A DNA stretch of 52,603 bases, from positions 1 to 52,603 of the IMG/VR virus record IMGVR_UViG_3300048121_000820. One strand, 5' to 3'. Position numbers and translations under genes: made by a program. Shown piece by piece: positions 1 to 28,121 of the stretch (positions within the stretch are counted from its first letter, which is position 1; each line of letters starts with the position of its first letter). This DNA is from a virus. Its lineage: Duplodnaviria; Caudoviricetes. The notes under the pieces were generated by a model. It was not told the DNA's origin, did no database searches, and saw only the letters and a program-made list of their open reading frames with translations.

Positions 1-195
1 GCCGACCAAATCGCCGCTAAACTAGCGCAAATCGATCGCTTTGAAAGAACCTACAAACCTAATGCAACAAGTAAATCTTGGCGTAAATGGTGTACCGATT
101 ATGAATACCGGAAACGCGAGTGGCAATTACGTCAGTCCGTAGCGAACAGTATAAAACCAAATACTAACTATTATAAAGAAAACACAATATTATGA
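1..195 (+). CDS. Hypothetical protein, 5'-truncated by window edge
   Basis: Frame 1 is open from base 1 (ADQIAAKLAQ...NTIL) to TGA 193-195, overlapping the next ATG (ATGA). Confidence 0.6.
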   Translation, partial: ADQIAAKLAQIDRFERTYKPNATSKSWRKWCTDYEYRKREWQLRQSVANSIKPNTNYYKENTIL

Positions 196-467
196 GATTA
201 ATTAAAGTAACCAAAGATGGGGCTCTACATTTTAAATTGAGTGATGGACGAATTGGCGCTACATACCCTAGCGGTTATGTAAGAGTATCTACCAAACAAG
301 ATAACTATTACCACAAAAAACCGTTAATGTACCAAATAAATAGACAAAAGAAAGATTGGTACGATCCGGGAAGTGAGTGGGGTTATAATACTTTAAGAGT
401 TTTAATACCTAATCATGCCGATCGAGTAAGAAGATTAATAGATTTTAACGAAGAAAACTGTAAATAA
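192..467 (+). CDS. Hypothetical early protein
   Basis: 91-aa ORF in a tightly packed co-oriented array; A-rich leader. Confidence 0.7.
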   Translation: MRLIKVTKDGALHFKLSDGRIGATYPSGYVRVSTKQDNYYHKKPLMYQINRQKKDWYDPGSEWGYNTLRVLIPNHADRVRRLIDFNEENCK

Positions 468-468
468 T

Positions 469-663
469 ATGAAATTAGATTTAAATAAAGTAGACAATCT
501 GGAATTCGATGGGATCGATTTCGCAGACTATCCGGACTTTGTAGATGCGTTCTTAGTAACCGCAGATTACGACGGAAAAGAAATGACTGAAGAACAAATT
601 GATTACCTTAACGATGAATACAGCGATTGGGTTTATGAGGAAGTGTATAACTCTATATTCTAA
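469..663 (+). CDS. Small, highly acidic hypothetical protein
   Basis: 64-aa, D/E-rich (DGIDFADYPDFVDA). Confidence 0.75.
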   Translation: MKLDLNKVDNLEFDGIDFADYPDFVDAFLVTADYDGKEMTEEQIDYLNDEYSDWVYEEVYNSIF

Positions 664-668
664 ACACT

Positions 669-836
669 ATGTATATAACAATATTAGATTTTAGCAGTGG
701 CCTCGTATCTCGCATAGAGGTGCTAGAGGGCATGAGTACCGAAGGATATGAAGAAGTAATTATTGACCGTGGGTTTAGGTTAAGTAACATCGAGTGGATG
801 TCACACACCGACCCGGAAATTTATGAATATGAGTAA
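669..836 (+). CDS. Hypothetical protein (55 aa, below ORF-track cutoff)
   Basis: Read manually: MYITILDFSSG...EIYEYE*, ATG 669, TAA 834-836; fills the gap exactly. Confidence 0.65.
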   Translation: MYITILDFSSGLVSRIEVLEGMSTEGYEEVIIDRGFRLSNIEWMSHTDPEIYEYE

Positions 837-1029
837 AATGAAACAACTAGACGAAATCGCAGAAGGTGTTGCGGACGTCACAATGGAATTAATGTATGAC
901 AGTGTAGATTGGCAACTGTCGGATTTTGAACAAGACGGCGATGACTACAATGCTATACACAGCGAAGTAATGTTCCGCGCTATCGAAAAAATGTGGTTCG
1001 AAATAAAAAAAGGATATCACGAAAAATGA
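823..1029 (+). CDS. Acidic hypothetical protein
   Basis: 68-aa ORF; the true start may be 829 or 838. Confidence 0.65.
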   Translation: MNMSKMKQLDEIAEGVADVTMELMYDSVDWQLSDFEQDGDDYNAIHSEVMFRAIEKMWFEIKKGYHEK

Positions 1030-1124
1030 AAGAATTTTATGACAACTTATGGTATACTTTTTATACCGGTATATTAGCTTTAGGTATATATATACTTATA
1101 TTGTGGAAAAACAAGAAGTTATAA
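1026..1124 (+). CDS. Small single-TM membrane peptide (32 aa)
   Basis: Read manually: MKEFYDNLWYTFYTGILALGIYILILWKNKKL*; ATGA overlap with the upstream stop; hydrophobic core and basic tail. Confidence 0.5.
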   Translation: MKEFYDNLWYTFYTGILALGIYILILWKNKKL

Positions 1125-1132
1125 GCGCAAAA

Positions 1133-1157
1133 TAAAAACGCACACCTGTAGATAATA
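1133..1157 (+). promoter_or_regulatory. Putative phage early promoter, copy 1 (TAAAAACG-N10-GATAATA)
   Basis: TAAAAACG cacacctgta GATAATA; intergenic; identical boxes and spacing recur four times. Confidence 0.75.
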
Positions 1158-1182
1158 TATATGAACAAAAAAATAAATAACT

Positions 1183-1371
1183 ATGTATTGTAGATGTGGA
1201 AATAAAGTACACCCAATCCGTTTAGATTTGGGATATAAAACGTGTGTGAAGTGTTCAACAACTAAAACATACTCGTATGTCCCGATCATTGAGCATAAAA
1301 CGGGTAATACAATACAAATTGTCAGCCAAGAGGTGAGCGCTTCAGTTCACCGAGCTTGGCGGCGTAAATAG
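1183..1371 (+). CDS. Small C4 zinc-finger protein (DksA/TraR-finger-like)
   Basis: CRCGNKVHPIRLDLGYKTCVKC resembles the CxxCG..I...RL.....CxxC pattern. Confidence 0.55.
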   Translation: MYCRCGNKVHPIRLDLGYKTCVKCSTTKTYSYVPIIEHKTGNTIQIVSQEVSASVHRAWRRK

Positions 1372-1449
1372 CTAGACGAGTAGCTTAATTAGGTTAAAGT
1401 AGGCGAGAACAGACACCTTGTAACTTTAACACATAAGTGAATTGCTAGC
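1371..1449 (+). ncRNA. Structured RNA hairpin unit 1
   Basis: Nested helices GCTAG/CTAGC, GCTTA/TAAGT, GTTAAAGT/ACTTTAAC and AGG/CCT in a non-coding gap. Confidence 0.6.
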
Positions 1450-1516
1450 ATAAGCAGTAGTAAGTATAAGTCAGGGTACACACCGGTAAATGACGTGCAT
1501 CTTATTACTGCTTTAT
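1450..1516 (+). ncRNA. Structured RNA hairpin unit 2
   Basis: 13-bp basal stem AAGCAGTAGTAAG/CTTATTACTGCTT (one G·U); inner GTCA/TGAC and GGT/ACC. Confidence 0.6.
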
Positions 1517-1596
1517 GGGCGTGAAATGGTTAGGTTGAGGTAGGCGTGCACACCTCGTAACTCTCAACAACGCAGGTTCGATTCCTGCCACGTCCA
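1517..1596 (+). ncRNA. tRNA-like RNA resembling an isolated tmRNA tRNA-like domain
   Basis: Acceptor stem GGGCGTG/CACGTCC with G3·U70; discriminator A1596; perfect T arm GCAGG-TTCGATT-CCTGC; no convincing D stem; long helix GTTGAG/CTCAAC replaces the anticodon arm; CCA not encoded (CTA). Confidence 0.7.
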
Positions 1597-1617
1597 CTAA
1601 TTTTAAAACTAAATAAT

Positions 1618-1821
1618 ATGAGTAAAACTAAATTTAACGGATTTGAAAAATGGCTTATCGAACAAGCGGTAACCGAATGGACTAGGCTTGCTGAAAACGA
1701 AGCAATTGAAGCGCAAAATAAAGGTATTAACCTAATATTTGCACCGGGTTATTTTGAAATGGTAAGCAAAGAATTGTTACATAAAGTAAATGGTATGACC
1801 TTAAAAAGATATGCCGATTAA
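1618..1821 (+). CDS. Hypothetical protein
   Basis: 67-aa ORF with A-rich leader (aaactaaataatATG). Confidence 0.7.
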   Translation: MSKTKFNGFEKWLIEQAVTEWTRLAENEAIEAQNKGINLIFAPGYFEMVSKELLHKVNGMTLKRYAD

Positions 1822-1843
1822 AAACGACAGAGTAAAGATAATA
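1819..1843 (+). promoter_or_regulatory. Putative phage early promoter, copy 2
   Basis: TAAAAACG acagagtaaa GATAATA. Confidence 0.75.
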
Positions 1844-1866
1844 TAATAAACTAAAAATAAATAATT

Positions 1867-2118
1867 ATGAGTAGACTAACAATTTATGAAAGGCTAAAGC
1901 CTGAAATCAAAGAAGCATTACATTCACCTTCTAACGACAAATACAAAGCAAGTGTTGATTCTATAGTTGAAGCGCTTTCAAGCACTACATTTTATAGTGA
2001 ATTAAAAATTAGCGACGTTAGCTCGCTATACACGTTCACCCATCTAGAATTCTATAAAATTTCTGCTTGGGATTTCAAATACGGCGAAAACATTTTAATA
2101 ACTAAATGTAATGAGTAG
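1867..2118 (+). CDS. Hypothetical protein
   Basis: 83-aa ORF directly after promoter copy 2. Confidence 0.7.
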   Translation: MSRLTIYERLKPEIKEALHSPSNDKYKASVDSIVEALSSTTFYSELKISDVSSLYTFTHLEFYKISAWDFKYGENILITKCNE

Positions 2119-2323
2119 TCAAGAACTACAAGAACGCGCAAGCAATAAAGCTTTCGCTAAGATCACTATGCTTGATTTCGATATCGACAAATTAAAAAGC
2201 GATATAAAGAATGAACTGTATGGTGGTCTTGATCGCGAGCAAATGAGTTTGCTATACACTGCAACTCTGCGTGAGCGTGAAGTATGGAATCATATCGCTA
2301 CAATAATAGAAACTAATAATTAA
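2111..2323 (+). CDS. Hypothetical protein
   Basis: 70-aa ORF overlapping the upstream stop. Confidence 0.65.
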   Translation: MSSQELQERASNKAFAKITMLDFDIDKLKSDIKNELYGGLDREQMSLLYTATLREREVWNHIATIIETNN

Positions 2324-2334
2324 TATATATACCA

Positions 2335-2691
2335 ATGACTAAAGAACAATTAGAATTAAAAGTAAAAGAGTTAACAGCGGCGTTAGCTCAATTTGAAACC
2401 GATCAACAAGAGCTAAATAAGCAACTTAATCAGGCAAAAGAAGACCTTGAAGACATTAACAAGCCTGTAATAACTAAAGAAATTCGTGAAGCTATGCGCC
2501 AACAGGTTTATGAAGCTGTAAGTAATTATAGCTTTGGCAATGTAGATAACTACGAGTATGACTTTGAAATTAACTATGATAACCGCATAGAGCTAAGCAA
2601 TCTAGAATTTAACTACACTGATGATCTCGAAGAAACTATATGCGACTATGTTGAATCAATATTTAAAGTACAAGATAATGACGAAGACTAA
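2335..2691 (+). CDS. Hypothetical coiled-coil/acidic protein
   Basis: 118 aa; heptad-like N-terminus and acidic C-terminus. Confidence 0.7.
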   Translation: MTKEQLELKVKELTAALAQFETDQQELNKQLNQAKEDLEDINKPVITKEIREAMRQQVYEAVSNYSFGNVDNYEYDFEINYDNRIELSNLEFNYTDDLEETICDYVESIFKVQDNDED

Positions 2692-2944
2692 AGAACAAAA
2701 AATACCTAAATGGTTTAAAGGTGTAATATACGACAAAGGTAGTGAAGTACTAAACGTTTTTAGCGGCGAACGCTATACACTTAACAACGTTGAGTTATCT
2801 ATGTACGATTTTATAATGGGTACTCAGTATGTAATGGAGGTTGCACCTAAAACAGTAACAGAAAAACAAATCAGTGAATTTCATAAAGCGCTTAATTGGT
2901 TTAGATCAAACAACACGGAAGCTTATATGATATTATTAGACTAA
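2678..2944 (+). CDS. Hypothetical protein
   Basis: ORF track gives 2621; ATG 2678 (MTKTKEQK) gives a typical short overlap and is preferred. Confidence 0.7.
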   Translation: MTKTKEQKIPKWFKGVIYDKGSEVLNVFSGERYTLNNVELSMYDFIMGTQYVMEVAPKTVTEKQISEFHKALNWFRSNNTEAYMILLD

Positions 2945-2948
2945 CATT

Positions 2949-3158
2949 ATGGCAAATATGAGTTATTGTCGCTTCGAAAATACGGCAAAAGATATGAGAG
3001 ACTGCATCTATGCTATCGAAGAGCGTGATGTATATGAGTTCAGTAGTTACGAGCTATCTGGATTTAAAGACGTGCTAGAATGTGCACGAGACATTGTAAA
3101 AATGGAAGATGACATTGAACGAATAATTGAATATTATGAATCTACTGACACAAAATAG
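2949..3158 (+). CDS. Hypothetical phage protein (MANMSYCRFENT type)
   Basis: 69-aa ORF whose N-terminal motif I recall from other phage small proteins. Confidence 0.7.
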   Translation: MANMSYCRFENTAKDMRDCIYAIEERDVYEFSSYELSGFKDVLECARDIVKMEDDIERIIEYYESTDTK

Positions 3159-3741
3159 TAAATTAAAAAAAACAAGTAAAGAACTCGGGCTCCGTGTGTT
3201 TAACTTCGGTATACCTGCATATAAATCTGCAAGCGGTAAGTTAACATGCCCTATGGCTGACGCATGCGTTAAATTCTGCTACGCCAAGAAAGGAGCCTAC
3301 ATCTGGTCTAACGTAAAACCCGCGTTTGAAAAGCGTTATGAGCTAACAAAGACAGACAACTTTGTTGAGGCTATGAACGCTGAAATACGTAAGAAGAAAC
3401 CTGACTACGTCAGAGTCCATGATAGCGGGGATTACTACTCACCTAAATATCTAAAAAAGTGGATCGAGATTGCTATACACAATCCGAACGTGAGGTTTTA
3501 CAGTTATACCAATATGATCGATATGTTGTTAAAAGCTTCATTACCAAGCAATTACGACATTATATTTAGCGATTCGGGTAAACAAAAACATTTAATAGAT
3601 GAAAGAAAACACAGACACACCAAAATATTTTCTAGTCATAGCGATCTTATACGCAACGGTTATATGGATGCTTCTAGTATTGACTTAATGGCTACAAAAT
3701 GGTTTAATAATACTAACAAAGTAGGATTAGTATTTCATTAG
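3127..3741 (+). CDS. Gp88-like protein (radical-SAM-like Cys cluster)
   Basis: NSKL...F.IPA...TCPMADACVKFCYA (CX5CX3C) and RVHDSGDY motifs; start may be 3136. Confidence 0.7.
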   Translation: MNIMNLLTQNSKLKKTSKELGLRVFNFGIPAYKSASGKLTCPMADACVKFCYAKKGAYIWSNVKPAFEKRYELTKTDNFVEAMNAEIRKKKPDYVRVHDSGDYYSPKYLKKWIEIAIHNPNVRFYSYTNMIDMLLKASLPSNYDIIFSDSGKQKHLIDERKHRHTKIFSSHSDLIRNGYMDASSIDLMATKWFNNTNKVGLVFH

Positions 3742-3750
3742 CATGCAAAA

Positions 3751-3775
3751 TAAAAACGAACAATAATAGATAATA
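3751..3775 (+). promoter_or_regulatory. Putative phage early promoter, copy 3
   Basis: (GCATGCAAAA)TAAAAACG aacaataata GATAATA. Confidence 0.75.
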
Positions 3776-3792
3776 CTATAAACAATGAAAAT

Positions 3793-4020
3793 ATGAAAAA
3801 CAATCTTGAATCAATAATGGTTGATTCCAGCGCTATATATAGTGCAGAATACAACAACAACGAAAATACTATGCTAGTATACTTTAATAACGATAGTATA
3901 TACAAATACCACGATATACCTCTTTTTTATTGGCGTGGGTTATTCGAATCAGAATCTAAAGGCAAATTTCTCAATAAGTTTATATTTAAAAACTTTAAAA
4001 CTGAGAGAATAGATCTATAA
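3793..4020 (+). CDS. KTSC-domain protein (single-stranded nucleic-acid binding)
   Basis: VDSSAI...YN.....L.VYF....IYKY.DIP......L..SESKGKFLN..I pattern. Confidence 0.8.
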   Translation: MKNNLESIMVDSSAIYSAEYNNNENTMLVYFNNDSIYKYHDIPLFYWRGLFESESKGKFLNKFIFKNFKTERIDL

Positions 4021-4310
4021 TGACGGATAAACAATTAGAAAAGTTAGCTACTCGTGTTGCTGAATTAGTTTTGACCGGTCTTATTGAAAAGCAAAAAGAA
4101 TGGGATCAACAATTCACTACAGACCTGAACGAATTAACACAAGATGGATTCGGTAATGCGAGATTAGTTAATGAGGAAGAGTTAATACTCGCTGAGATAG
4201 CTAGGCTTATGACCCTATTGTCATCTTATGAAGAAAATGAACAATACGAAAAAGCCGCTATAATACACAATAAACTAAAAATACTAGAAGACAAACTTAA
4301 TAAACTTTAA
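4020..4310 (+). CDS. Protein with C-terminal UVR (UvrB/UvrC) helical motif
   Basis: YEENEQYEKAAIIHNKLKIL. Confidence 0.6.
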   Translation: MTDKQLEKLATRVAELVLTGLIEKQKEWDQQFTTDLNELTQDGFGNARLVNEEELILAEIARLMTLLSSYEENEQYEKAAIIHNKLKILEDKLNKL

Positions 4311-4311
4311 T

Positions 4312-4803
4312 ATGAATATCTTTTATTTACACCCGGATCCAGCTAAAGCTGCTGGTTTTTTTTATGAAAAACACAAGGTTAAAATGATCTTAGAGTCAGC
4401 TCAAATGTTATGTACCGCACATCACGTATATAATAATGGCGATAATGTGCCATACAAAAAAGCGCACCTTAATCATCCAAGCACTATATGGGTAAGAGAC
4501 AGTATACACCATTACAATTGGTTGTACGATCACATGCTTGCATTAGGCAAAGAGTATACAGCTAGATACAATAAGCATCACCTTAGTATTGCTAAGTGTC
4601 GTGAAGCTTTAATGTACCCACCATCAGGTATGCCCGATAATGGATTTATCCAACCACCTCAATGTATGCCTGACGAATACAAAGAGCCTAGTAGCTTAAT
4701 AGCTTACTGGAATTATTACGAACAAGAAAAACATAAAGTAAGAAATAAAAATGAGAAGAAAATTATACGTCCATCTAACATCAACGAATTATGCGAATAT
4801 TAA
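4312..4803 (+). CDS. Pyrimidine-dimer DNA glycosylase/DenV-like protein
   Basis: MNIFYL.......HKVKMILESAQML...H.NHPS.IW....Y.WL......EY..RY motifs. Confidence 0.75.
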   Translation: MNIFYLHPDPAKAAGFFYEKHKVKMILESAQMLCTAHHVYNNGDNVPYKKAHLNHPSTIWVRDSIHHYNWLYDHMLALGKEYTARYNKHHLSIAKCREALMYPPSGMPDNGFIQPPQCMPDEYKEPSSLIAYWNYYEQEKHKVRNKNEKKIIRPSNINELCEY

Positions 4804-5012
4804 TACGAAGATACAAAAAGAACAGAAGAAAAGCAAAGCACGTAAGGTTTCTAGAAAATAGAATATCAATCTTGCATAACGAGATAGTAAAAGCGGCTTT
4901 CAAAAGCGAATATAGTTTTAATAAAAACATAACTATTTTTGGCGGCAACATAGAAAATAAAGCAAAGCTTTTAAAAAAGTACAACAGAAGATTAAAGATT
5001 TTAATCTACTAA
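4791..5012 (+). CDS. Basic hypothetical protein
   Basis: 73-aa K/R-rich ORF, co-oriented with neighbours. Confidence 0.5.
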   Translation: MRILIRRYKKNRRKAKHVRFLENRISILHNEIVKAAFKSEYSFNKNITIFGGNIENKAKLLKKYNRRLKILIY

Positions 5013-5051
5013 TACGACGATAGCTAATATATAATTAATAGTAAGAACCTA

Positions 5052-5678
5052 ATGTCACAATACGACCGAAATACCAAATACCTAGATAAGCATCGTATAA
5101 TATATAGGCAAAATCCTACAACCGACACACCAACAGAAACATTTGATTGGGGTTGGTTTTATAGAGAGGGTACGCATCAATGCTATACATTGTTTAATTC
5201 TCGCGCTAAAATAACCACATATAGAAGCCTCAAATGGCATTTGTATGTATTATGGTATCTTAATCCTCAATTGGATCAAGAGGGCTTTAATTCCATTGCT
5301 GAGCATGTATGCAATAAGCAAGCAGGATTTGTGACATTCAAGGTATCAAATCAATTGCTGCAAAGCATGGTATATGATGTTTCACTTATGGATCTTGAAA
5401 GACCACCACCTAATAAATTACGTAAAGTTATATTCAAAGACTTCACAGGTTTAGATATGCGACAAAAGCTATCTATAGTAGGCAAGCTAGTCGGTAGATC
5501 TAAAATATCTGAAAGCGAAATATACGATGCGATGCTACTTATAAATGATAGCCAAATTAAAATAACGGTTGCAAGGCTTGCTGAGGCACTTAAATGTTCA
5601 ACAAGAACTATATATCGTAATATGAGTAACGAACTTAAAAAAGAAAAAGAATTACTTAATAATCAAATAAAAGATTAG
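5052..5678 (+). CDS. DNA-binding protein with C-terminal HTH
   Basis: ITVARLAEALKCSTRTIYRNM is a typical HTH. Confidence 0.7.
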   Translation: MSQYDRNTKYLDKHRIIYRQNPTTDTPTETFDWGWFYREGTHQCYTLFNSRAKITTYRSLKWHLYVLWYLNPQLDQEGFNSIAEHVCNKQAGFVTFKVSNQLLQSMVYDVSLMDLERPPPNKLRKVIFKDFTGLDMRQKLSIVGKLVGRSKISESEIYDAMLLINDSQIKITVARLAEALKCSTRTIYRNMSNELKKEKELLNNQIKD

Positions 5679-5689
5679 AGCATGCGTAA

Positions 5690-5714
5690 TAAAAACGACA
5701 CTATTTAGATAATA
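5690..5714 (+). promoter_or_regulatory. Putative phage early promoter, copy 4 (upstream of sigma gene)
   Basis: (GCATGCGTAA)TAAAAACG acactattta GATAATA, 5 nt before ATG 5720. Confidence 0.75.
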
Positions 5715-5719
5715 TAAAT

Positions 5720-6478
5720 ATGAAAAAATACAATATACAAAACTACATAAGATACAAAGAGGATTTAAAAGTTTCTATATGTAATCTTGAGGGTAAGTTT
5801 TACGATGAATATACCAGGGATGAGTTGATTGTAAGGTTCATGCCGCTTGTGGAAAACTTGGCGCGTAAATTTTCAACTACACAGCAAGCCTCAGGTGTCC
5901 TTAGTATTAATGATCTTATACAAGAAGGTAATAAAGGATTGATTTTAGCCGTAGACAAATTAGATTGGGCAATGATAGATGAGTCGCCAGATGTTGAAAA
6001 AACATTAAAAAGTTTTTTTAGCAAAAGAATTAAGGGAGCTATAAGACGCGCAATAGATATTAACAGAGGGGATATACGTATACCAGAACATAAACTAAAT
6101 GAAATACGTAAAAACCCTAAAGATCAAAAAATTGTTGCGATGTTTTTTAATTCTGTGTTTTCTAGTATAGATGAAAACTTTAATAATGAAGAAGAAGACC
6201 CTATATATCAAATAGCGGATAAATCAGAACCATATAATATACAAATACTTAATATTTATTTGAAAGGTTTAATGAAAAAATATTTAACACCAATTGAATA
6301 TGAAGTGTTGAGGCTATCATATGGTTTAGACTGCGAAAAACATTCTGCAAACTATATAGCAAACAAGTTAAATATAAATGTTAGCACCGCAAACGTGCGT
6401 GTTTCACAAATAAAAAGAGAAGCTATTGATAGACTTATCGCTAATACTGACGCAAATCAAGTGATTGATTATCTTTAA
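5720..6478 (+). CDS. Phage sigma-70 family RNA polymerase sigma factor
   Basis: Region 2 (PLVENLARKF...DLIQEGNKGLILAVDK...IKGAIRRAI...IRIPEH) and region 4 (EYEVLRLSYGL...IANKLNI...RVSQIKREAI). Confidence 0.85.
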   Translation: MKKYNIQNYIRYKEDLKVSICNLEGKFYDEYTRDELIVRFMPLVENLARKFSTTQQASGVLSINDLIQEGNKGLILAVDKLDWAMIDESPDVEKTLKSFFSKRIKGAIRRAIDINRGDIRIPEHKLNEIRKNPKDQKIVAMFFNSVFSSIDENFNNEEEDPIYQIADKSEPYNIQILNIYLKGLMKKYLTPIEYEVLRLSYGLDCEKHSANYIANKLNINVSTANVRVSQIKREAIDRLIANTDANQVIDYL

Positions 6479-6489
6479 TTTATAAACAA

Positions 6490-6504
6490 AATGTGTAATT
6501 ATAT
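6490..6504 (+). promoter_or_regulatory. Candidate middle/late promoter (AATGTGTAATWATAT)
   Basis: 14/15 match to the minus-strand element at 28142-28156; both lie in gaps just before gene blocks. Confidence 0.4.
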
Positions 6505-6528
6505 TAATATACCAAAACCACAAACCAT

Positions 6529-7077
6529 ATGACTTTAAATGAAAAACTGGCAACTATCCAGACAAAGTTTAAATCGAAAAAAAGTAGATTTAATTCATTC
6601 GGCAAATATAACTTCAGATCAGCCGAAGACATCCTAGAAGCAACAAAACCCTATCTATTAGAATTAGGAGTAACAGTAACGATTATCGAACAGCTAATCC
6701 AAAGCGAGCCGTTTCCTATATTGGAATCAAAAGCTATTATTGCTGACGGCGATGGTGCTATACACGCAACATCTATAGTTGGTGTTGACTTAACTCAAAA
6801 AGGTATGCAAATGCCTCAAAAGTTTGGTAGTGCCTCTAGTTATGGCAAAAAGTATGCTCTCGGTAATTTATTTTTAATTGACGATACAGCAGATAGCGAT
6901 GCTACAAATTCACACGGAAAAGCTTCCGCGGCTAAAAACAAAGAAACCTTAACCTCTAAAAAAGATCCAGCTTACAGTAAAGCGATCGACTATGTAAAAG
7001 CAGGTGGTAAAATTGAAGCTATAAAAGCTAAATATTCTTTATCTAAAGAGATAGAGGCAGAATTAAAAACACTATAA
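6529..7077 (+). CDS. ERF-family single-strand annealing protein
   Basis: KSRFNSFGKYNFRSAEDILEA.KP and Q.FGSASSYGKKYAL..LF.IDD..DSD motifs. Confidence 0.8.
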   Translation: MTLNEKLATIQTKFKSKKSRFNSFGKYNFRSAEDILEATKPYLLELGVTVTIIEQLIQSEPFPILESKAIIADGDGAIHATSIVGVDLTQKGMQMPQKFGSASSYGKKYALGNLFLIDDTADSDATNSHGKASAAKNKETLTSKKDPAYSKAIDYVKAGGKIEAIKAKYSLSKEIEAELKTL

Positions 7078-7809
7078 ATGGACGATAAAGTAGCTATTGA
7101 AAAATTAAGAAAAGATGAAAACTATTATGGTAAGTTTGGAAAAAAATACTTATCTAACAGTGACATATCTACCTTAATGACAAACCCTTTAGCGCTAGGT
7201 ACACCTATGAAACCATCAGCTGCATTTTTAGTTGGTGGTTACTTTCACACTGCTATTCTTGAACCAAACAAGTTAAAAAAGTATAAGATAGTAGAAAGTT
7301 CAACTAGGAACACTAAAGCGTATAAAGAGATTTCAGGCGGAGAGCTATGTCTTCTACAAAAAGAGGTTGATCAAATTGATTTGATGACAGATAAGTTAAT
7401 GGAAAACGACATCTGCAGAGGATTAATAAGAGGATCTAAAGTAGATTATGAACAGCCTGCTATTACAGAATTAGAAGGATTGAAATGGAAAGGAAAAGCA
7501 GATATTGTAAATCACGAAGAAGGTTTAATAATTGATTTAAAAACCACAGGAGATATTACAAGATTCAGAAGCTCAGCTTACCGTTACAATTACGATTCTC
7601 AAGCTTATATTTATAGTAAACTATTTGGTTATGAAATGTTATTCATAGTGATGGATAAAACTACACATCAAATAGGAATATTTGATTGCTCACCTGATTT
7701 TTATCAACGTGGGGCAGACAAAGTTCAACAAGCGGCAGAGCAATACAAGTTGTTCTACCAAAACCCGGATTTCGATCCAAACAATTATTTTATTAACAAA
7801 ACCCTTTAA
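7078..7809 (+). CDS. PD-(D/E)XK exonuclease (RecE/ExoVIII-like)
   Basis: LSNSDI...G.YFH..ILEP; KGKAD...IIDLKTT...Y.YD.QAY.Y; adjacent to ERF. Confidence 0.8.
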   Translation: MDDKVAIEKLRKDENYYGKFGKKYLSNSDISTLMTNPLALGTPMKPSAAFLVGGYFHTAILEPNKLKKYKIVESSTRNTKAYKEISGGELCLLQKEVDQIDLMTDKLMENDICRGLIRGSKVDYEQPAITELEGLKWKGKADIVNHEEGLIIDLKTTGDITRFRSSAYRYNYDSQAYIYSKLFGYEMLFIVMDKTTHQIGIFDCSPDFYQRGADKVQQAAEQYKLFYQNPDFDPNNYFINKTL

Positions 7810-7811
7810 AA

Positions 7812-7991
7812 ATGGCAAGAACCAGAAAAAACCAAACAAAAGTATGCAGTGTAACCGGACTAGAAACTAGTGTTAATAATTTTTACACTAATCAAAACCA
7901 TGTAAAAGCCGTAGACAACTTAAGGCGGAATAGCGGCGCATCAAAAGAACAGATGCAAAGAATGTTTAATCAGATAAATCAATATGTATAA
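7812..7991 (+). CDS. Hypothetical protein (59 aa, below ORF-track cutoff)
   Basis: Read manually: MARTRKNQTKVCSVTG...NQYV*; TAATG coupling with the next gene. Confidence 0.65.
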   Translation: MARTRKNQTKVCSVTGLETSVNNFYTNQNHVKAVDNLRRNSGASKEQMQRMFNQINQYV

Positions 7992-8299
7992 TGGCAAGTA
8001 TTATTAAAGCGAGTATCAATCTGAACGAGATACCAAAAGACAAAATCATTATTGGCAAGAAAGGTAAGTATTTACCTGTGACTATAACTATCAATGATGA
8101 AGTAGATCAATTTGGAAATCAAGGTCCGATTGTAGTAGCTCAAACAAAGGAAGAGCGAGAAGCTAAGCAAGGTAAAACTTATTTAGGAAACGTTCAAGTA
8201 GTATGGACTAACGGCGAGAATGTTGCCGCTGCTCCAAGACAAGACCAACCAGCTCAGGCAGCTCCGGCTCCTGCGCCTGCAGATGATCTACCGTTTTAA
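7991..8299 (+). CDS. Single-stranded DNA-binding protein
   Basis: Small beta-rich core, P/A linker and C-terminal DDLPF; located in the replication module. Confidence 0.75.
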   Translation: MASIIKASINLNEIPKDKIIIGKKGKYLPVTITINDEVDQFGNQGPIVVAQTKEEREAKQGKTYLGNVQVVWTNGENVAAAPRQDQPAQAAPAPAPADDLPF

Positions 8300-16700: not shown

Positions 16701-17179
16701 TAGTAATTATATTTCTTTCTTTTTTTCTTTTCTCTTTTTTCTACCCGAGTAAGTTTTTTACCTAGTCTTTTTAATTTTCTTTGAGCTTTTTTCTCTCCTT
16801 TGCTTTCTTCATAATTTTCAGAAGAATAATTAGATCTAATAAATGCCTCTTTTTCAAGATTTTTCATTTTATCTTTTATTACTTCACCTTTTTCATAAAG
16901 CTTATCAGTGAACCCAGGAGGAGGAGTAGTGGTTTGTTTAGATGGAGAACTATTACCCCAATTAGCAGCGCCTTTTTTTCTACAGGCTGCAATAGCACCA
17001 CTTGCATAAGCCGAAGGAAAAACATCATATCTGGCTTTTACTTTACGGTAGCATGCGTCTTTTTTCTTAGCAATACTAATAGGCCCGCCTGTTCCATCTG
17101 CATTTTTTGTAACTTCTTGATTTATTGGGAAATTTTTACTTTTGCGCTTCATAACGCGCGATGTGATTGGTTCGTTCAT
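16700..17179 (-). CDS. Highly basic phage protein
   Basis: KKDACY.KVKARY.VFPSAYASGAI..CRK motif; K/R-rich tail. Confidence 0.65.
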   Translation of the reverse strand: MNEPITSRVMKRKSKNFPINQEVTKNADGTGGPISIAKKKDACYRKVKARYDVFPSAYASGAIAACRKKGAANWGNSSPSKQTTTPPPGFTDKLYEKGEVIKDKMKNLEKEAFIRSNYSSENYEESKGEKKAQRKLKRLGKKLTRVEKREKKKRKKYNY

Positions 17180-20100
17180 TATTTTTTATTTAGTTCGTTT
17201 CTTAGATCTTCTATTACTTGTTCAGTAGTCATTTTTGATCTAACATTAATTAGACTGTCTTGCTTTCTTTTTTTATTTCTTTCTCTTGTTACTTTAGCTT
17301 TTTTTCTACCCTCGGCTCTGTTCTTTTTTGTTTGAGCTTTTTTCTCTTCTGCGGGAACAAAAACATCATCATAAAATCCTAAGCTCCACTTGTCCCACCC
17401 GGCAGCTAATGCTAACCTTTTAGTTGGCTCAATAGTTCCGTCAGTCAATGCTAACTTTAAATTATCTATCTTGCTTAATATTCTATCCGTAGGCACATTA
17501 GTTATAGAAGAAAATATTTTTGCTCTGGCCATTAACATGGGGTTGTCTAAAGCATACTTGCCATATTGTTCTAGTTCTTCTTTACCTTTTTTTGTTGAAT
17601 AATATCTAAATGTTTTAAAAGCAGAGGACTGTTTTTTAACTTTACTTGACAGCGGAGGTGAAATACCTAATTCTTCATTAATTACATCCGCATATTCTGC
17701 TCTATATCCTTTAGGTTTTTCTCTATAGTATTCAGCTAAAGCGTTCTTACCTGTAGTAAGAATCTTACCAGGTAAACCTGCGCCGTTCAAAAATCCATCT
17801 AAAGTTGAATTAAGTAATCTTGCGTTTCGCTTATCTCTATTTTTTTGGTTAAATTCTTTTTCTTCTTGTGATACTTCTTCATCATCGCCCCCAAACATGT
17901 CCAAGAATCTTGCTTGTTGCATTGCGTAGAATATAATACTTTGCACAAGGCCATAATATACCATGCCCGATATATTTGTTTTAGCATCCCCTCTCCTGTT
18001 TATTAAATCTAAAGATCGTTTTTTAAACAAACGAGTCATTTGCATAGGTGTGTTATTAAACGCAAATAGCAATCTACCTAAAACGCCTGTCTGCAAATTT
18101 GAAACCCTGTCTTGTCTTGAAGACTGCTGGTTTTCTTCTGACAAAGATCTAAAGTCCTCAAAGGCTTTTTTCTTTGCGGCTTCAGGCGAAAGACCTGCTT
18201 TTGAATATGTTTTAGTTCTATTTATTAAAAAAGGAGTTCCACCTGCGGCAATAGCAAAACTATCTGCTAATTGTGTTGGTGTAAAACCTATTTTTATTAG
18301 GGCATCGTATAAATATCTAGCTTTACCTTTGCTCCTTTCAACAGCCTTCGCTATTTCAGCTTCTTCTACATTTATTTCTAAACCTGATCTACGTTGCTTT
18401 AAAAAGTCTGAATTAAATATTTCAACAAAAGTCTTAGCAAATTGTTTTGGGTTTTTTAATGTTGATGCTACTGCGATAGGATTGTTATCACTCCAGTTTA
18501 AATAATTTACTGCTGATATTGTTTGTAGTATTGCTGATCTAGAATTTAAAAACATAATAACCCCTACGGACCCGTTTATATAGTCAAGCCCTGCTCTAGC
18601 TTCTTTGCTTAAATTTTCAGGTCTACTTTTACCTGATTTCATTCTAGCAATAATTTGCTGTAGGTTATCAACGTATCCTTTTCCGTAGGCTGCTTCTATT
18701 TTATTTAGGTTGTCTTGGGTAAACATAGCGTCCACATTTTCAACCCATTCTTTTAAAAATTCGGCTCTAGCCCCTTCGTTTGAATGTTTAAAAAGATCAT
18801 ATCTTATATTGCTTGAAAACCAACTTTCACTAGGCTTAGGATAAGATTCTTTTGTTTTAGTAATACCTAATATGCCTTTTGCATAAGCGCTAAGTCTAGG
18901 GTCATTTTTAACTATCTTATTTAAAAGATTAATTTCAGATTTTTTAATACCGGGTATATCGTATTTTAAAGATTTCCATATTGAAACGCGTACTGCTTGA
19001 TCTGCATTAAACCCTGCTTCTTTAAGATTTAATTTTGCTTCTTTGCCCATCTTAGCGTCAATGTTGCCAATCTGTTTTTCTAATGCTTTAAAATCATTAC
19101 CTAAATTTTGTCTGTAGGAGCTTATAGCATTTTCGGCCCTGTTAAAAGGCTCAAGTAATACCTTCTTCATTAAAGCCATGTCTTTATTACCTTGCTCACC
19201 TTTGCCATAAAATTTGTAAAGCATTCCAGCAAAGTCCTCTGCATTAGGAGGTAAAAACAAATCAAATTTGCCTTTCTTTCTGCCTAAATTTGTTGCCTGC
19301 GCTGCAGACACTTTTTTACGAGCTGGTATACCTTTTTTGCGCTCAATCATTTTGTTAAGTTCGCCACTTAGGTTTATTTGCTTAGAAGACATTATAGCTT
19401 GCTGGACATCGGATTTAACGTCAAATAAATCTAAAGCTGTTTTAACCGCTTTAACATTTTTTATAGCATCATCTGCAAAATAGAAATCATTGTAGCCCTC
19501 GGCAACTTTGCCAACCATCCACTCTGATTTCGCTTTAGGCGCACCATCTCCAAGTCCAACTATATTTTCTAATGGTATATCTAACCCTTCGGACTTTAAA
19601 AATTCTCTAATAGCTTTGGCTGAATTAGCAGGACGCGCAGTTAAAACAAAAACATCTTTAGTTGTAAACTTTCCAGCCTTCTTTTGTGCTTCACTAAACA
19701 GAGGACCTAGCTTGCCTTGAACAACTTTACTAAACTCACTAAAATCAAACTTAGCTCCAGCAGCTTCTAAGGCTTCCGATTTTTTTGCAAACTCTGTTGC
19801 ATTTAATTTGCCAGTTTTGCCGTTAGGCATTGTGTATAGCACGTTAGACTTCGTTCTAGCTAATGTATCGTCAAAATCAAAAACAGATATACCTTTTCGT
19901 TTTTTATTAGGGTCTTTTGCATTTTCAAAAGCTTTTCCAAATGTTATAGTTTTGCTAGCGAAAGATTCTGTTGTTGTATTTTCTGTGACATTAAGAAGTT
20001 CAGATTCTAATGCAACTTTATTATTTTCTTTAATTGTACCTTTTTCAGCTTTAATTATTGAGTTTTTAGCTTTTTCCGCATACTCTTTAACCATTTCAGA

Positions 20101-23100
20101 ATAAGCAGTTTCGCCTGTTGTCCAATTATAAAAATCTTTTAAAGCAGATATTTCAGCATTAGATATTTTTCCGTTCACTATTTTTGAGGCTATCATTTTT
20201 AGCCTTGCTGCATTTTCAATAGTTGTACCTAGCATCCCGTCTGCTATTTCTTGCCCTTTTTTGCTACCTATAACACTATTGTATTGAGATGTTATTTCCT
20301 TAATTTTTTCAATATTAAGTTCACCTTTTAATAAAGCATCAATAACCTCAGCTCCAAATTCTGCCTTGGACATTAAATGTTCATTTTTAGATTTATCAAA
20401 CGAATTTAACTCTATATATTTTTCAGAAGAAAATTTTCTAATGCCTGTACCGTCGTTGTTTAGTAACATTTTGCCAACAGACTGGGAAAAACTTTTGAGT
20501 TCAGCCCCCTCAAGCTTTGATCCTATTTCCCCTATTGTTGCTAAAAGAGCATCTAATATTTTTTCTTTAACCTTAATATCAGTTATGGCTTCTTGTTTGC
20601 CCTCAAGGTTACTAATCTTTTCTTTTTGCTGTAGCTCATTTAGGGTCTTGTCCGCGGATATTTCAGAAGCTTCTTCGTAAAATTTTCTAGACTTATTTGT
20701 TATTGTTATACCTTTGCCCTTAAGATTGTTATTTTCTGCTAACTCAATAGCTTCGTTCCAAAGTTTTTTAACATTCTCAGGTAATTGATTTTTACCAAAA
20801 TCTTTACTAAATAGATCAACAAAACTTTCTCTATTTAATTTTTCCCCGGTAGCCTTTACTTCTCTGCTAGTCCAAGACATAATTGCGGCTATAATACCTC
20901 CGTCGGTTCTTGAAGATTTTGCGCTAGTTAAATCTAATGCTTCTTTTGGTAAATAGGATACAATATCTTTAATGTGAGATTTAAATTTTTCTATTGATTC
21001 CGGCGAAGAGCTTCTTATGTTTTTATAAAGTTCCGCACCATCAACGTTTCTTGCTTTTAGTTTTGCTATTAAGTCTTCGTTAACTCTGCCCTCTTGTTTT
21101 ATATACTCTGTGGACGCGCGTGAATCGGCCATAGCTTGTTCTTCTATAAGCCTTAAACCTTCCGGACCGCCTTTTAATTTTTCTATCTCATCAATTGGTC
21201 TAAAATTACCGTTTTTATCAAAAAATACATTTTCAAATCTACCGCCTCCTTTTTTAACAGCCTCTATAACCTTTGAATTCAACTCTGTATTTATTCCTCT
21301 ATCGATGCTCTTTGAAACTAAAGCTACATAGTTTTCTACCAGATCTACCCCTAGATCTTCTTGACGGGATTCTATTTGCTTACGCATAGATTCGTTGGTT
21401 AACTTTAACATTACCTTGTCAAAGCCAATCTCAGTAGAAAGCGCTTCAAATAAAGATCTTCGTTTTCCATCTATACGCATTTTACCATCGCCTATAAAAT
21501 ATTCTTTCCACTCCTCTGGGGTAATATTCTTTTTTGCAAATATAGGATTACCAGCTGCTGTTTTTTCTCTAGCCTGCTTGCCTGTTGCTTTATCAATAAC
21601 TGCTTCTTTAAAAGGTGCAAATCTTTTGTTTATAGCCGATTGGCTTATGTAATTTTTAAACAAAGGAAAACTCCTTTCTATAAAGTTCTCATATTCAGGA
21701 GTTGGAGTATAATTATCTTTTAATTTAAACTGTCTTTCAAATTCAGGTACCAATTTATTTTTTGCAATTTCGGTAATTTCGTTTATTGCTGTTGGAAATT
21801 TCTTATATTTTTCCGCTACACCAAGGTTTTTCTGGACATCTTTAGGCGATCTTGCTCTAATTACCTCAGTTTTTCCGCCTGTAGTAACCCTAGCTTTATT
21901 ACTTTCTAGCATAGCCACCTTAGCATCACCTATAGTACCTCTAGATTTAGCATCAAGGTCAGATAGCTTTGTACCCATTAAGCCAAGATCTCCTATTTTT
22001 TCAGCGGCATCTTTAAACTGTTGATCAACTCCCATTCTAGTCTCAGCTTGTTGATCCGCTAGCCTAGTATTTTTAACTGGAGACGAGATATCTACGAATC
22101 CAGAGGGCGCGCCACCTAGCCCCTCTGACTCGGCTATATTGGCTGCTTTAGCTGGGTCTTTGTCTATGGACACTGTATTGAATATATCTTTATATTGAGG
22201 CAACTTTAATACACCTAGTATTTTATTATTTAGCTGACCAAACACATAGGAGGTTAAGCTAGCTTCGCCACTTTCTTTATAAGACTTAACAAGTCCAGGT
22301 ATATTTTGTGATCCCTTTCCTGTTCCTAAAGATACATCAGAAACGATGTCATTTATAGTTTCTTCAGGTATATTATTTAGACCGTTGCGATCCATATAAG
22401 ATTTAATCTTTGCTTTCACTAACGGCTGAAATTCATATCCAACCATAACGCCCGCTTGCTCTACGCTGCCCCCTGAATTAATAATTTCTTCGTATGCCTT
22501 TGTTGCTTTTGAAAATATATCTTTTTTCTCAGCAGGGTTTATTTCTTTTGAAGATAAATCTTTTTCAACCTCTTTATCTGTTTTTAACTCTTGACCTGTT
22601 TGCTTATTTAAAAGCTTATTGCCATCAATAACAATATTTTTAAAAGCATCAAATTTTTTCTTTATTGCAGAGGAATTACCGCCTTCTGCAACTTTACCAA
22701 GACTAAATAAAAACTCTAAAACTTGATCGCCTGTTGTAAAGTCTTTTTTATTGCCATATTGTAATCCTATATTTTGCCCAGCTGTTATAATATTTCTTTT
22801 TAACGACTGTAAAACACCAGACTGTAATAATATTTCTCTATTACGAGGAGCTTGTAGGAACTCAACCACGTTCATTACATATTCTTCCGTCGGTCTGTTT
22901 TTGCCATAAGCTTCATTTATAGCCTCTTCAAATGTAAATTTTTCACCCGGTTTATTTGGCAAAGTAAATTCTTGGCCAATACTATTAAAACGGCCTTCTA
23001 CATCGGATTTAATTTTTTCTTTAAATTGTTTAGCTATTAAAGGGTCATTTTTAAAAGCCATGTCCATAAAAAAGTGTCCCGCTTCTTGTGCAAATACACC

Positions 23101-27518: not shown

Positions 27519-28121
27519 TTATCCCATAATGCCCGAAGTAGCAAACCCACCGGCTAAGTTGCCAACGCCTCCTAGTATTCCTTGAGTTGCGGCGTTTCTT
27601 GCTTCATTAGCGGCTTGAACTCTTTGCCCTGACATACCCATTAAAGTAGAAACTTTATTAAGCTCTGCTTCTCTTGATTTTAATTCGCCAGCGGCCTCCA
27701 TTCTTTGTAGATTAGATTCTTGCTGCATTTGAGCCATTTGGTTTTGTCTTTCTTGTTGACCAATACTTACGCTAGCTCTTTCTGCGTTCATCGAAGATTG
27801 GTTTGCCATAGCCTGTGCTAAGGCAGCAATACCTGATCCACCTGCGGCACCTTGCATTCCAGACATAGTGTTAGCCAATGATTGTTGTTGTGCTCTATTA
27901 GCAAATTCAGCTTGTTGCTGATTCACTGTTAAGTCTTCGTAAACGTTTTCGAGTCCTGCATATACATTAGATGTGTCTAAATTTTCAAACTGCGCTTTTC
28001 TTCTTTGAAATTCTTGCTGAGCTCTTCTTTGCTCTCTTTTCCTTTTGCCACTGCCTATAATCCCTCCGGCTATTCCCATTAAGCCTTGGACTCCAGACAT
28101 AACTGCTCCCATTGGTATCAT
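27519..28121 (-). CDS. Putative ejection/pilot-like protein
   Basis: Gly/Ala-rich hydrophobic termini with a Q/A-rich coiled-coil core, typical of small podovirus ejection proteins. Confidence 0.65.
   Translation of the reverse strand: MIPMGAVMSGVQGLMGIAGGIIGSGKRKREQRRAQQEFQRRKAQFENLDTSNVYAGLENVYEDLTVNQQQAEFANRAQQQSLANTMSGMQGAAGGSGIAALAQAMANQSSMNAERASVSIGQQERQNQMAQMQQESNLQRMEAAGELKSREAELNKVSTLMGMSGQRVQAANEARNAATQGILGGVGNLAGGFATSGIMG

Follow-up and report, generated by a model that had tools for sequence, protein, structure and literature searches.

A tmRNA homologue probably reduced to its tRNA-like domain in a marine phage, its family in uncultured relatives, and a candidate role as a decoy for SmpB

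The DNA analysed (the window, 52,603 nt) comprises positions 1 to 52,603 of the IMG/VR virus record IMGVR_UViG_3300048121_000820 (Duplodnaviria; Caudoviricetes), which is linear, has an estimated completeness of 82% and contains ~35% G+C. An 80-nt element on its + strand (1517-1596) is very probably a homologue of transfer-messenger RNA (tmRNA) that consists of the tRNA-like domain (TLD) only. An earlier note, made from the letters of the window, had proposed a tmRNA TLD with alanine identity elements and without an mRNA-like domain at this place, and Rfam, a covariance model of the family and covariation between homologues backed the proposal. For its function we favour, at a probability of roughly 0.5 for the whole chain of steps, a host-matured and probably alanylated decoy that would compete for SmpB and so lower trans-translation. 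The parts of the element, as read directly from the sequence, are as follows.

1517-1596, + strand: probable TLD-only tmRNA gene (sequence reading, RF00023 alignment, fold, covariation, family covariance model)
1517-1523, + strand: 5' strand of the acceptor stem, GGGCGTG
1524-1533, + strand: D-type GG loop, unpaired, AAATGGTTAG
1534-1539, + strand: 5' strand of helix 2, GTTGAG
1540-1562, + strand: interior module of 23 nt, inside helix 2
1563-1568, + strand: 3' strand of helix 2, CTCAAC
1569-1571, + strand: linker, AAC
1572-1588, + strand: T arm, GCAGG-TTCGATT-CCTGC
1589-1595, + strand: 3' strand of the acceptor stem, CACGTCC, giving G3.T70 (G3.U70)
1596, + strand: discriminator A
1597-1599, + strand: 3' trailer, CTA in place of CCA

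The layout described in the earlier note (acceptor, G3.U70, discriminator A, unpaired region, helix, AAC and T arm) was reproduced by this reading and by folding; the minimum-free-energy fold of the element was the same as the layout read by eye. The fold energy corresponded to z = -1.98, with 8 of 200 shuffles equally stable, and folding energy alone is weak evidence for the element. G3.U70 together with A73 is the identity set of alanyl-tRNA synthetase (AlaRS). CCA is not encoded, the bases after A1596 being CTA.

ARAGORN, one of the checks that the earlier note had named, returned 0 genes on the 52.6-kb window. Rfam at gathering scores returned 0 matches on the window. With permissive thresholds in a 601-nt search, the tmRNA model RF00023 aligned 1517-1599 to model positions 1-374 (36.1 bits, E = 6.7e-13; below the gathering cut-off of 47), with 326 interior model positions replaced by 36 nt. 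RF00023 was the best model of the tRNA clan at the element, and neither RF00005 (tRNA) nor RF02544 (mitochondrial tmRNA) outscored it; overlapping lower-scoring clan matches were left out of the Rfam listing, and the RF02544 score itself was not displayed. The permuted tmRNA model RF04321 gave 20 bits (E = 0.054; cut-off 47) on the window, over 1570-1661 only. The two TLD halves of the element stand in the standard 5'-3' order, in one piece and unpermuted.

From a tmRNA the element thus has the acceptor with G3.U70 and A, the T arm, the GG loop without a D stem, helix 2 and the linker. It does not reach the RF00023 gathering score and has neither the mRNA-like domain nor PK1-PK4. The absence of a tag ORF (open reading frame) and of pseudoknots, as claimed before, was borne out: with only 23 nt inside helix 2, the element holds no resume codon, tag reading frame or stop codon, and no pseudoknots PK1-PK4 or substitutes for them, the 326 RF00023 positions being deleted.

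Homologues were sought in fetched stretches of viral contigs or genomes (loci, labelled L and a number), and a covariance model of the family (R1) was made from 63 sequences (alignment A1). Across all loci, 83 distinct elements of 64-149 nt (median 88) were obtained. Their sources are contigs of uncultured marine phages whose relatives are podophages of Flavobacteriia. The 28-nt 3' part of the window element occurred exactly in 52 viral-contig stretches, and 52/52 had GGGCGTG and the GG loop upstream and a helix before AAC, with total lengths of 68-149 nt. The 17-nt 5' part was present in 36 viral stretches; 10 of these were new and had a changed T arm and acceptor, with T70 kept in 10/10. Among one-per-species bacterial and archaeal genomes, a 25-mer of the element was found in six stretches, all with the mini form and a CTA trailer and all on phage-like contigs of metagenome-assembled genomes. 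In two of the three genomes holding these stretches (both Bacteroidetes), the full tmRNA had a different acceptor stem. R1 matched the 52.6-kb window once, at 1517-1596 (78 bits). At the 58 elements of the 52 viral and 6 genome loci, ARAGORN called no tRNA or tmRNA. One 80-nt member (L167:2043-2122) scored 59 bits on RF00023, above the cut-off of 47. With default cut-offs, ARAGORN and Rfam overlooked all tested members but one, and a dedicated model would therefore be useful.

A further sample was picked by the gene for a 62-aa protein upstream of the element and was therefore independent of the RNA sequence. This ORF had 168 relatives in viral contigs, from which 80 loci were fetched and searched with R1 at a threshold of E <= 1e-6. 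The search gave 56 elements in 55/80 loci, all downstream of the ORF and on the same strand. Among the 25 loci with no R1 match, 9 have <650 nt after the ORF and 16 have the full 1500 nt.

Covariation was analysed in the 47 distinct sequences of this ORF-anchored sample, and the acceptor stem, the T arm and helix 2 were found to covary. The acceptor stem and the T arm were paired in 100% of cells. Pair 4:69 was CG in 33 sequences, GC in 10 and AU in 4, and the three variable T-stem pairs were CG 33/AU 9/GC 5, AU 29/CG 11/GC 5/GU 2 and GC 39/AU 8. In helix 2, both-sided changes were seen at 6/6 counted pairs. The covariation score was matched by 0/500 shuffles, and pairing fell from 88.6% to 33-53% when the partners were slid by 1-3 columns. 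Pair 3:70 was GU in 46 sequences, AU in 1 (L158) and GC in 0. A wobble that stays unrepaired beside a variable 4:69 pair is as expected from selection for the alanine identity element. The loss of G3.U70 in homologues, named in the earlier note as a refuting outcome, was seen in one of these 47 sequences. The 3:70 counts were taken from the ORF-anchored set only, because the regular expression behind the 83-element count fixes T70. The discriminator was A in 83/83 distinct elements and invariant in alignment A1, in which one D-loop G was invariant and the other conserved to at least 90%. The trailers of the 83 elements were CTA (75), CAA (4), CTG (3) and CCA (1).

In three loci two TLD-only genes lie in tandem (L059:5388-5478 and 5545-5647; L061:341-434 and 825-914; L166:1854-1947 and 2338-2427), and the first L059 copy is the only element seen with an encoded CCA. 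Loci L012 and L018 are parts of one 63,259-nt viral contig that carries the same TLD unit near both ends. This arrangement may be a terminal repeat or an overlap of a circular assembly, and the TLD unit may sit at a genome end.

The neighbourhood of the element contains the following features.

1129-1158, + strand: promoter-like motif AAAATAAAAACG-N10-GATAATAT (repeated word before the 62-aa ORF)
1183-1371, + strand: gene for the conserved 62-aa CxC...CxxC (zinc-ribbon-like) protein (38-sequence DNA alignment)
1371-1449, + strand: long hairpin 'frame' with a module at ~1394-1436, a paralogue of the TLD interior (predicted fold of 1365-1620)
1452-1513, + strand: hairpin with a 13-bp stem, GCAGTAGTAAGTA...TCTTATTACTGC (predicted fold of 1365-1620)
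1618-1821, + strand: next small ORF, 67 aa, starting 21 nt past the RNA (ORF list; no family found)

Small ORFs and replication genes make up the + strand block that holds the element, and the repeated promoter-like motif stands upstream of it. In the form TAAAAACG-N10-GATAATA this motif occurs four times on the + strand within the early block (GATAATA starting at 1151, 1837, 3769 and 5708), located at 1129-1158, ~1815-1844, ~3747-3776 and ~5686-5715 ahead of small early ORFs. The segment 1128/1151-1185 is repeated 2-3 times in several related loci. A scan with the sigma-70 consensus did not call the motif at 1129-1158. It is probably a phage-specific early promoter unlike the sigma-70 consensus.

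In the 38-sequence DNA alignment, the 62-aa gene showed third-position substitutions and a conserved start and stop. Its product has the CxC...CxxC pattern, a very conserved middle and a basic C-terminal tail. At E <= 0.001 it had relatives in 173 clusters, of which the 120 listed were 71-93% identical and unnamed or 'hypothetical'. For the four small ORFs around the RNA, including those of 62 aa and 67 aa, Pfam and PHROGs gave nothing credible; tblastn of the 62-aa ORF against 50,697 phage records gave no match, and Foldseek of its AlphaFold2 model (pLDDT 82.3) against the PDB gave none at E <= 0.001. The gene always lies ahead of the RNA region, and its product may bind RNA as a partner of the TLD or the hairpin modules. 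For the two hairpins between this gene and the TLD, the fold of 1365-1620 (256 nt) had z = -4.46 against shuffles. Positions 1450-1533 are 98% identical in L019, the part 1465-1500 recurs in ~10 loci, and the 1452-1513 hairpin is also present in L104.

Over the window as a whole, small ORFs, a primase/helicase and a ribonucleotide reductase are encoded on the + strand (1 to ~16 kb), and the portal and structural genes on the - strand. Among the structural genes lies a 2886-aa ORF (17179-25839, -), a candidate for an enzyme packaged in the virion or for an injection protein. The portal is 41-55% identical to the portals of 87 phage records, which by the first word of the organism name comprise 68 Flavobacterium, 15 Cellulophaga, 2 Tenacibaculum, 1 Maribacter and 1 Caudoviricetes. 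Because these portal relatives are phages of Flavobacteriia, the host is probably a marine member of that class. The 50,697 phage records held no match to window positions 1-8000 by megablast or to 1372-1617 by blastn. Domains of SmpB and of a CCA-adding enzyme were looked for in the window, itself an 82%-complete fragment, and not found; host factors would therefore be used.

Eighteen seawater metatranscriptome RNA-seq runs contain part of 1150-2650, and expression was assessed from the contigs of four of them (X1-X4). In run X1, a 275-nt contig was identical to 1321-1595 with no mismatch and had a depth of 746, next to a contig over 1621-1925 with depth 14.9 and one over 1100-1148 with depth 3. 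Within one strain, contig depth thus falls ~50-fold, with the step within 1 nt of the predicted 3' end of the TLD, a hint that an abundant RNA ends there. Contigs of runs X2-X4 (depth 321-845) covered 1195/1201-1394 and 1363/1365-1495/1499 and then passed into other sequence. They come from related phages with another module order and are no evidence for absence of the element. The earlier note had taken the element for an early phage RNA. Its expression as such is plausible, given the early + strand block, the promoter-like motif and the depth-746 contig.

Features on the 3' side suggest that the element is handled like a tRNA. A tRNA gene starts 2-13 nt past the element in L030, L058 and L006, and 26/29 distinct tRNA genes that ARAGORN called in the loci show a final C and then TA, the same C-T-A as in the trailer of the element. 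The natural expectation is that the host would mature the RNA with RNase P, a 3' endonuclease and its CCA-adding enzyme.

Sequence, structure, covariation, family, gene context and a hint of abundance are observed; how the RNA is matured and charged, whether it binds SmpB and acts as an inhibitor, and what the phage would gain are inferred. The proposed course is as follows. The RNA would form the 3' end of a short, highly expressed early transcript (promoter-like motif, 62-aa ORF, hairpins and TLD, in this order). Host enzymes would mature it like phage tRNAs, with an RNase P cut at G1517 and, because the trailer is CUA and not CCA, a 3' cut after A1596 followed by CCA addition. The mature RNA would offer G3.U70 and A73 to AlaRS, a 12-bp acceptor/T helix for EF-Tu binding, and a tmRNA-type D loop, helix 2 and linker for SmpB binding. 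Since there is no resume codon, tag frame or stop codon, trans-translation could not be completed; the RNA would therefore compete with host tmRNA for SmpB, possibly for stalled ribosomes as well, and host trans-translation would be lowered during infection.

The closest experimental parallel comes from a mycobacteriophage. PMC4131195 (Hudson, Lau and Williams 2014) lists a 'Mycobacterium phage DS6A (TLD only)' tmRNA, and PMC11915505 (Nawrocki, Petrov and Williams 2025) repeats DS6A and adds tmRNAs without a coding sequence from mitochondria and two plastids. According to both texts, which cite Mao et al. 2009 for it, a DS6A-like TLD-only molecule is a strong inhibitor of tmRNA in E. coli, 'perhaps acting by titrating SmpB'.

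Several observations weigh against the decoy. As noted, 16/80 ORF-anchored loci have the full 1500-nt flank and no TLD at E <= 1e-6, and the RNA is therefore dispensable in some relatives. The alanine identity is not universal: L158 (2099-2163) has A3-U70, and in L140 and L144 (2137-2202), two of the 16 loci just mentioned, the sole TLD-like element scores 24 bits and has A3-U70 and discriminator U. These three loci are natural controls for the importance of alanylation. The TLD interiors are in part modules that also occur elsewhere: 38 of 81 distinct interiors match same-strand sequence outside any TLD in other loci (23-94 nt, 85-100% identity, E <= 1e-3), and a carrier role therefore fits this observation as well as a decoy role does. 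The sole RNA contig over the element (X1, 1321-1595) bridges the TLD 5' end and hence does not demonstrate a discrete 80-nt RNA; contig depth is coarse and cannot prove RNA ends, and one of the four runs covers 1503-1595. We know of no established benefit that a phage would draw from blocked trans-translation. Finally, the experiment cited above was performed, in the words of the source, with 'a similar molecule' in E. coli, thus neither with this RNA nor in a host of the Flavobacteriia (PMC4131195).

The main rival of the decoy is a role in processing, stability or carriage, with tag-less rescue next. Under the main rival, which we regard as possible and clearly less probable than the decoy, the element would be a tRNA-like processing and stability element. 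Together with the other hairpin and tRNA-like frames of the leader, it would supply a very abundant early transcript with sites at which RNase P and RNase Z cut and with a 3' end that resists nucleases, and it would display variable hairpin modules in a tolerant helix-2 loop, with SmpB and AlaRS uninvolved. In its favour are the interiors shared with sequence outside TLDs, and pairwise alignment of 1391-1436 with 1529-1572 showed that the module of the upstream hairpin and the TLD interior are paralogous, with compensatory stem changes. The frame of 1371-1449 recurs with other inserts in L101, L104, L114, L154, L158 and L116. Most of the outside copies of the 38 shared interiors are located in the leader between ORF and TLD. 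Moreover, the TLD abuts the stop codon of the 62-aa ORF in L031, L060 and L037, and the X1 data fit this rival too, as depth falls ~50-fold where the TLD ends and the contig bridges its 5' end.

What such a role leaves unexplained is the tmRNA-specific part of the design. RNase P and RNase Z need a generic acceptor/T minihelix only, and neither the 3:70 G.U in 46/47 sequences beside a 4:69 pair of three forms, nor the tmRNA-type D loop and linker, nor the acceptor common to host tmRNA would be required. A cargo target is likewise not known, as the modules had no match in Rfam or in 401 host-class genomes; in the latter search, made with 1372-1600 for host counterparts such as CRISPR repeats and sRNAs, matches of less than ~25 nt would escape. 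Likeness of the modules to CRISPR repeats was considered and dropped, with no match in the same 401 genomes. A short tag frame was looked for by eye in the interiors, with nothing consistent found. Either the helix-2 loop tolerates anything, comparable to the large loop of a real tmRNA, or tRNA-like frames carry small RNAs.

In L101 (1770-1853), L104, L114, L154 and L158, the leader from ORF to TLD contains a second tRNA-like frame, which is absent from the window. It consists of a 5' AACUAGGUCAGG, a variable insert, a T arm GAGG-UUCGAAU-CCUC and then ACUAGUUAC, and was called neither by the Rfam tRNA model nor by ARAGORN.

In tag-less rescue, the alanylated TLD and host SmpB would enter stalled ribosomes and accept the peptide, and other factors would resolve the complex without tagging. 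The structural evidence for such a role equals that for the decoy, high abundance would suit a stoichiometric rescuer, and the same has been suggested for mitochondrial tmRNAs without a tag frame. Against it, no way of release following peptide transfer is known in bacteria, a full tmRNA is already present in the host, and the sole TLD-only experiment mentioned in the passage of PMC4131195 on this subject reports inhibition and not rescue. We consider it improbable, and of about the same low standing is a broader idea, according to which the TLD and the frames are natural RNA scaffolds, processed as tRNAs are and resistant to nucleases, on which a very abundant early transcript displays combinatorial hairpin modules as decoys or regulators against host factors or defences. 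If that idea were true, the tmRNA-like frame would add delivery to SmpB or the ribosome, and the module repertoire, not the TLD, would vary under selection between phages.

That the element is a functionless fragment of host ssrA, such as an attP core or a scar of imprecise excision of a temperate phage, is very improbable. tmRNA genes often serve as integration sites, and prophages may contain ssrA fragments, as described in the text of PMC9004378; an attP, however, holds the 3' part of the gene only, whereas here both halves are present and paired. The 83 distinct versions, with the fold kept by compensatory change, contradict the fragment. In species-representative genomes the 25-mer occurred only on the six phage-like contigs, always as the mini form, and the full tmRNAs of two of the three genomes with those contigs have other acceptor stems. 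Least probable of all is a tRNA that is unusual yet decodes, such as a tRNA-Ala carrying a long insertion: the acceptor stem, T arm and alanine identity elements and the location among tRNA genes in some loci would suit it, but it is contradicted by the missing D stem and missing 5-bp/7-nt anticodon arm, by interiors of ~20 to ~104 nt with unrelated sequences, by the 58 elements at which ARAGORN made no call and by a tRNA model that did not score above the tmRNA model.

If SmpB titration by the decoy is true, shutdown of trans-translation would be a regular early step of infection in an abundant group of ocean phages, and the natural variants of the family (three acceptor classes, A3-U70 members, interiors of ~20-104 nt) would probe the needs of SmpB and AlaRS. 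Independently of mechanism, an RNA of this family is prominent in seawater metatranscriptomes and adjoins a conserved small protein gene.

Compared with tRNA-Ala and alanine minihelices, the element likewise combines G3.U70 and A73 with a 7-bp acceptor stacked on the T arm. Unlike tRNA-Ala, it has no anticodon arm and no D stem, and neither ARAGORN nor the tRNA model called it. Compared with a standard tmRNA (RF00023), it has the same TLD, while the pseudoknots, resume codon, tag frame and stop codon are missing and 23 nt replace ~290 nt.

Host tmRNAs were compared by a search of 1372-1600 against the 401 host-class genomes, 33 of which were matched. The matches covered the last 20-33 nt only, apart from a phage-like contig of one genome (G001) and one marginal 26-nt match. 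Seven of the matched places were fetched and proved to be five full-length tmRNAs (111-134 bits) and two tRNAs. The five tmRNAs have the acceptor GGGGGTG/CACCTCC, which is also that of the second phage class; the window acceptor differs from it at pair 4:69 only (C-G versus G-C). Their T loop is TTCGATT as in the window, and CTT, CTG or CTA follows, so that CCA is not encoded there either.

Among related phages, Maribacter phage Panino (portal 46.8% identical) has similar TLD halves, including the CTA trailer. The RF04321 alignment there (63.9 bits, cut-off 47) takes in the two TLD halves and extends over positions 1-133 of the model's 213. By this match the Panino tmRNA is permuted and in two pieces, whereas the window element is in one piece, unpermuted and without a coding part. 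The annotated 333-nt tmRNA of Panino (L087, PP540027.1 27557-27889) overlaps tRNA-Asp and tRNA-Thr, and Rfam puts the permuted two-piece tmRNA at record positions 27590-27732; because of this difference in placement, the annotation looks mis-delimited. For Cellulophaga phage Calle, the text of PMC8776804 gives one tmRNA gene. The relatives MW202828.1 and Flavobacterium phage elemoA showed no tmRNA-like match.

Organellar tmRNAs offer a second comparison. Mitochondrial tmRNAs without a tag frame (jakobids and others; RF02544) and the ~65-bp plastid tmRNAs are likewise TLD only and presumably partners of SmpB, according to the section of PMC11915505 that treats them. They are, however, the sole tmRNA of their compartment and are thought to aid rescue, whereas the RNA of the window would be an extra viral copy beside an intact host tmRNA.

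The novelty implied by the earlier note was overstated, as TLD-only tmRNAs had already been described in DS6A, in jakobid and other mitochondria and in two plastids. What that note did not contain were the lack of an encoded CCA, the family, the linked upstream gene and the swappable interior. A description of a marine TLD-only family was not found in the literature, where supplementary tables (PMC11915505; PMC9004378 Table S1, with 133 unique phage tmRNAs) may list more.

The DS6A gene is the nearest known system. RF00023 aligned to it (JN698994.1 28478-28560) end to end with 43.2 bits, below the cut-off, and R1 matched it with 42.6 bits (E = 1.3e-8). Like the window element, it is phage-encoded, ~80 nt long and located between protein genes. 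Both have a 7-bp acceptor with G3.U70, discriminator A and a CUA trailer; both have a GG loop but no D stem, close helix 2 with a short hairpin and join it to the T arm by a 3-nt linker. The common layout and the RF00023 and R1 matches therefore place the window element in a kind that has been published. The two differ in primary sequence, which is unrelated, in G+C content (70% in DS6A, 55% in the window element) and in their carriers, a siphovirus of Actinobacteria versus relatives of podophages of Flavobacteriia. DS6A is moreover a single case, against 83 distinct members here. A phage TLD-only tmRNA had rested on one mycobacteriophage gene and one heterologous experiment; the same design now recurs in uncultured marine phages of hosts of a different phylum, as a family that is conserved and under selection. 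New aspects are how large the family is, that it occurs in another lineage of phages and hosts, that a gene is linked to it and that helix 2 holds interchangeable hairpin modules; the exchangeable interiors and the preceding 62-aa gene characterise the family described here, and the comparison in these two respects does not extend to DS6A.

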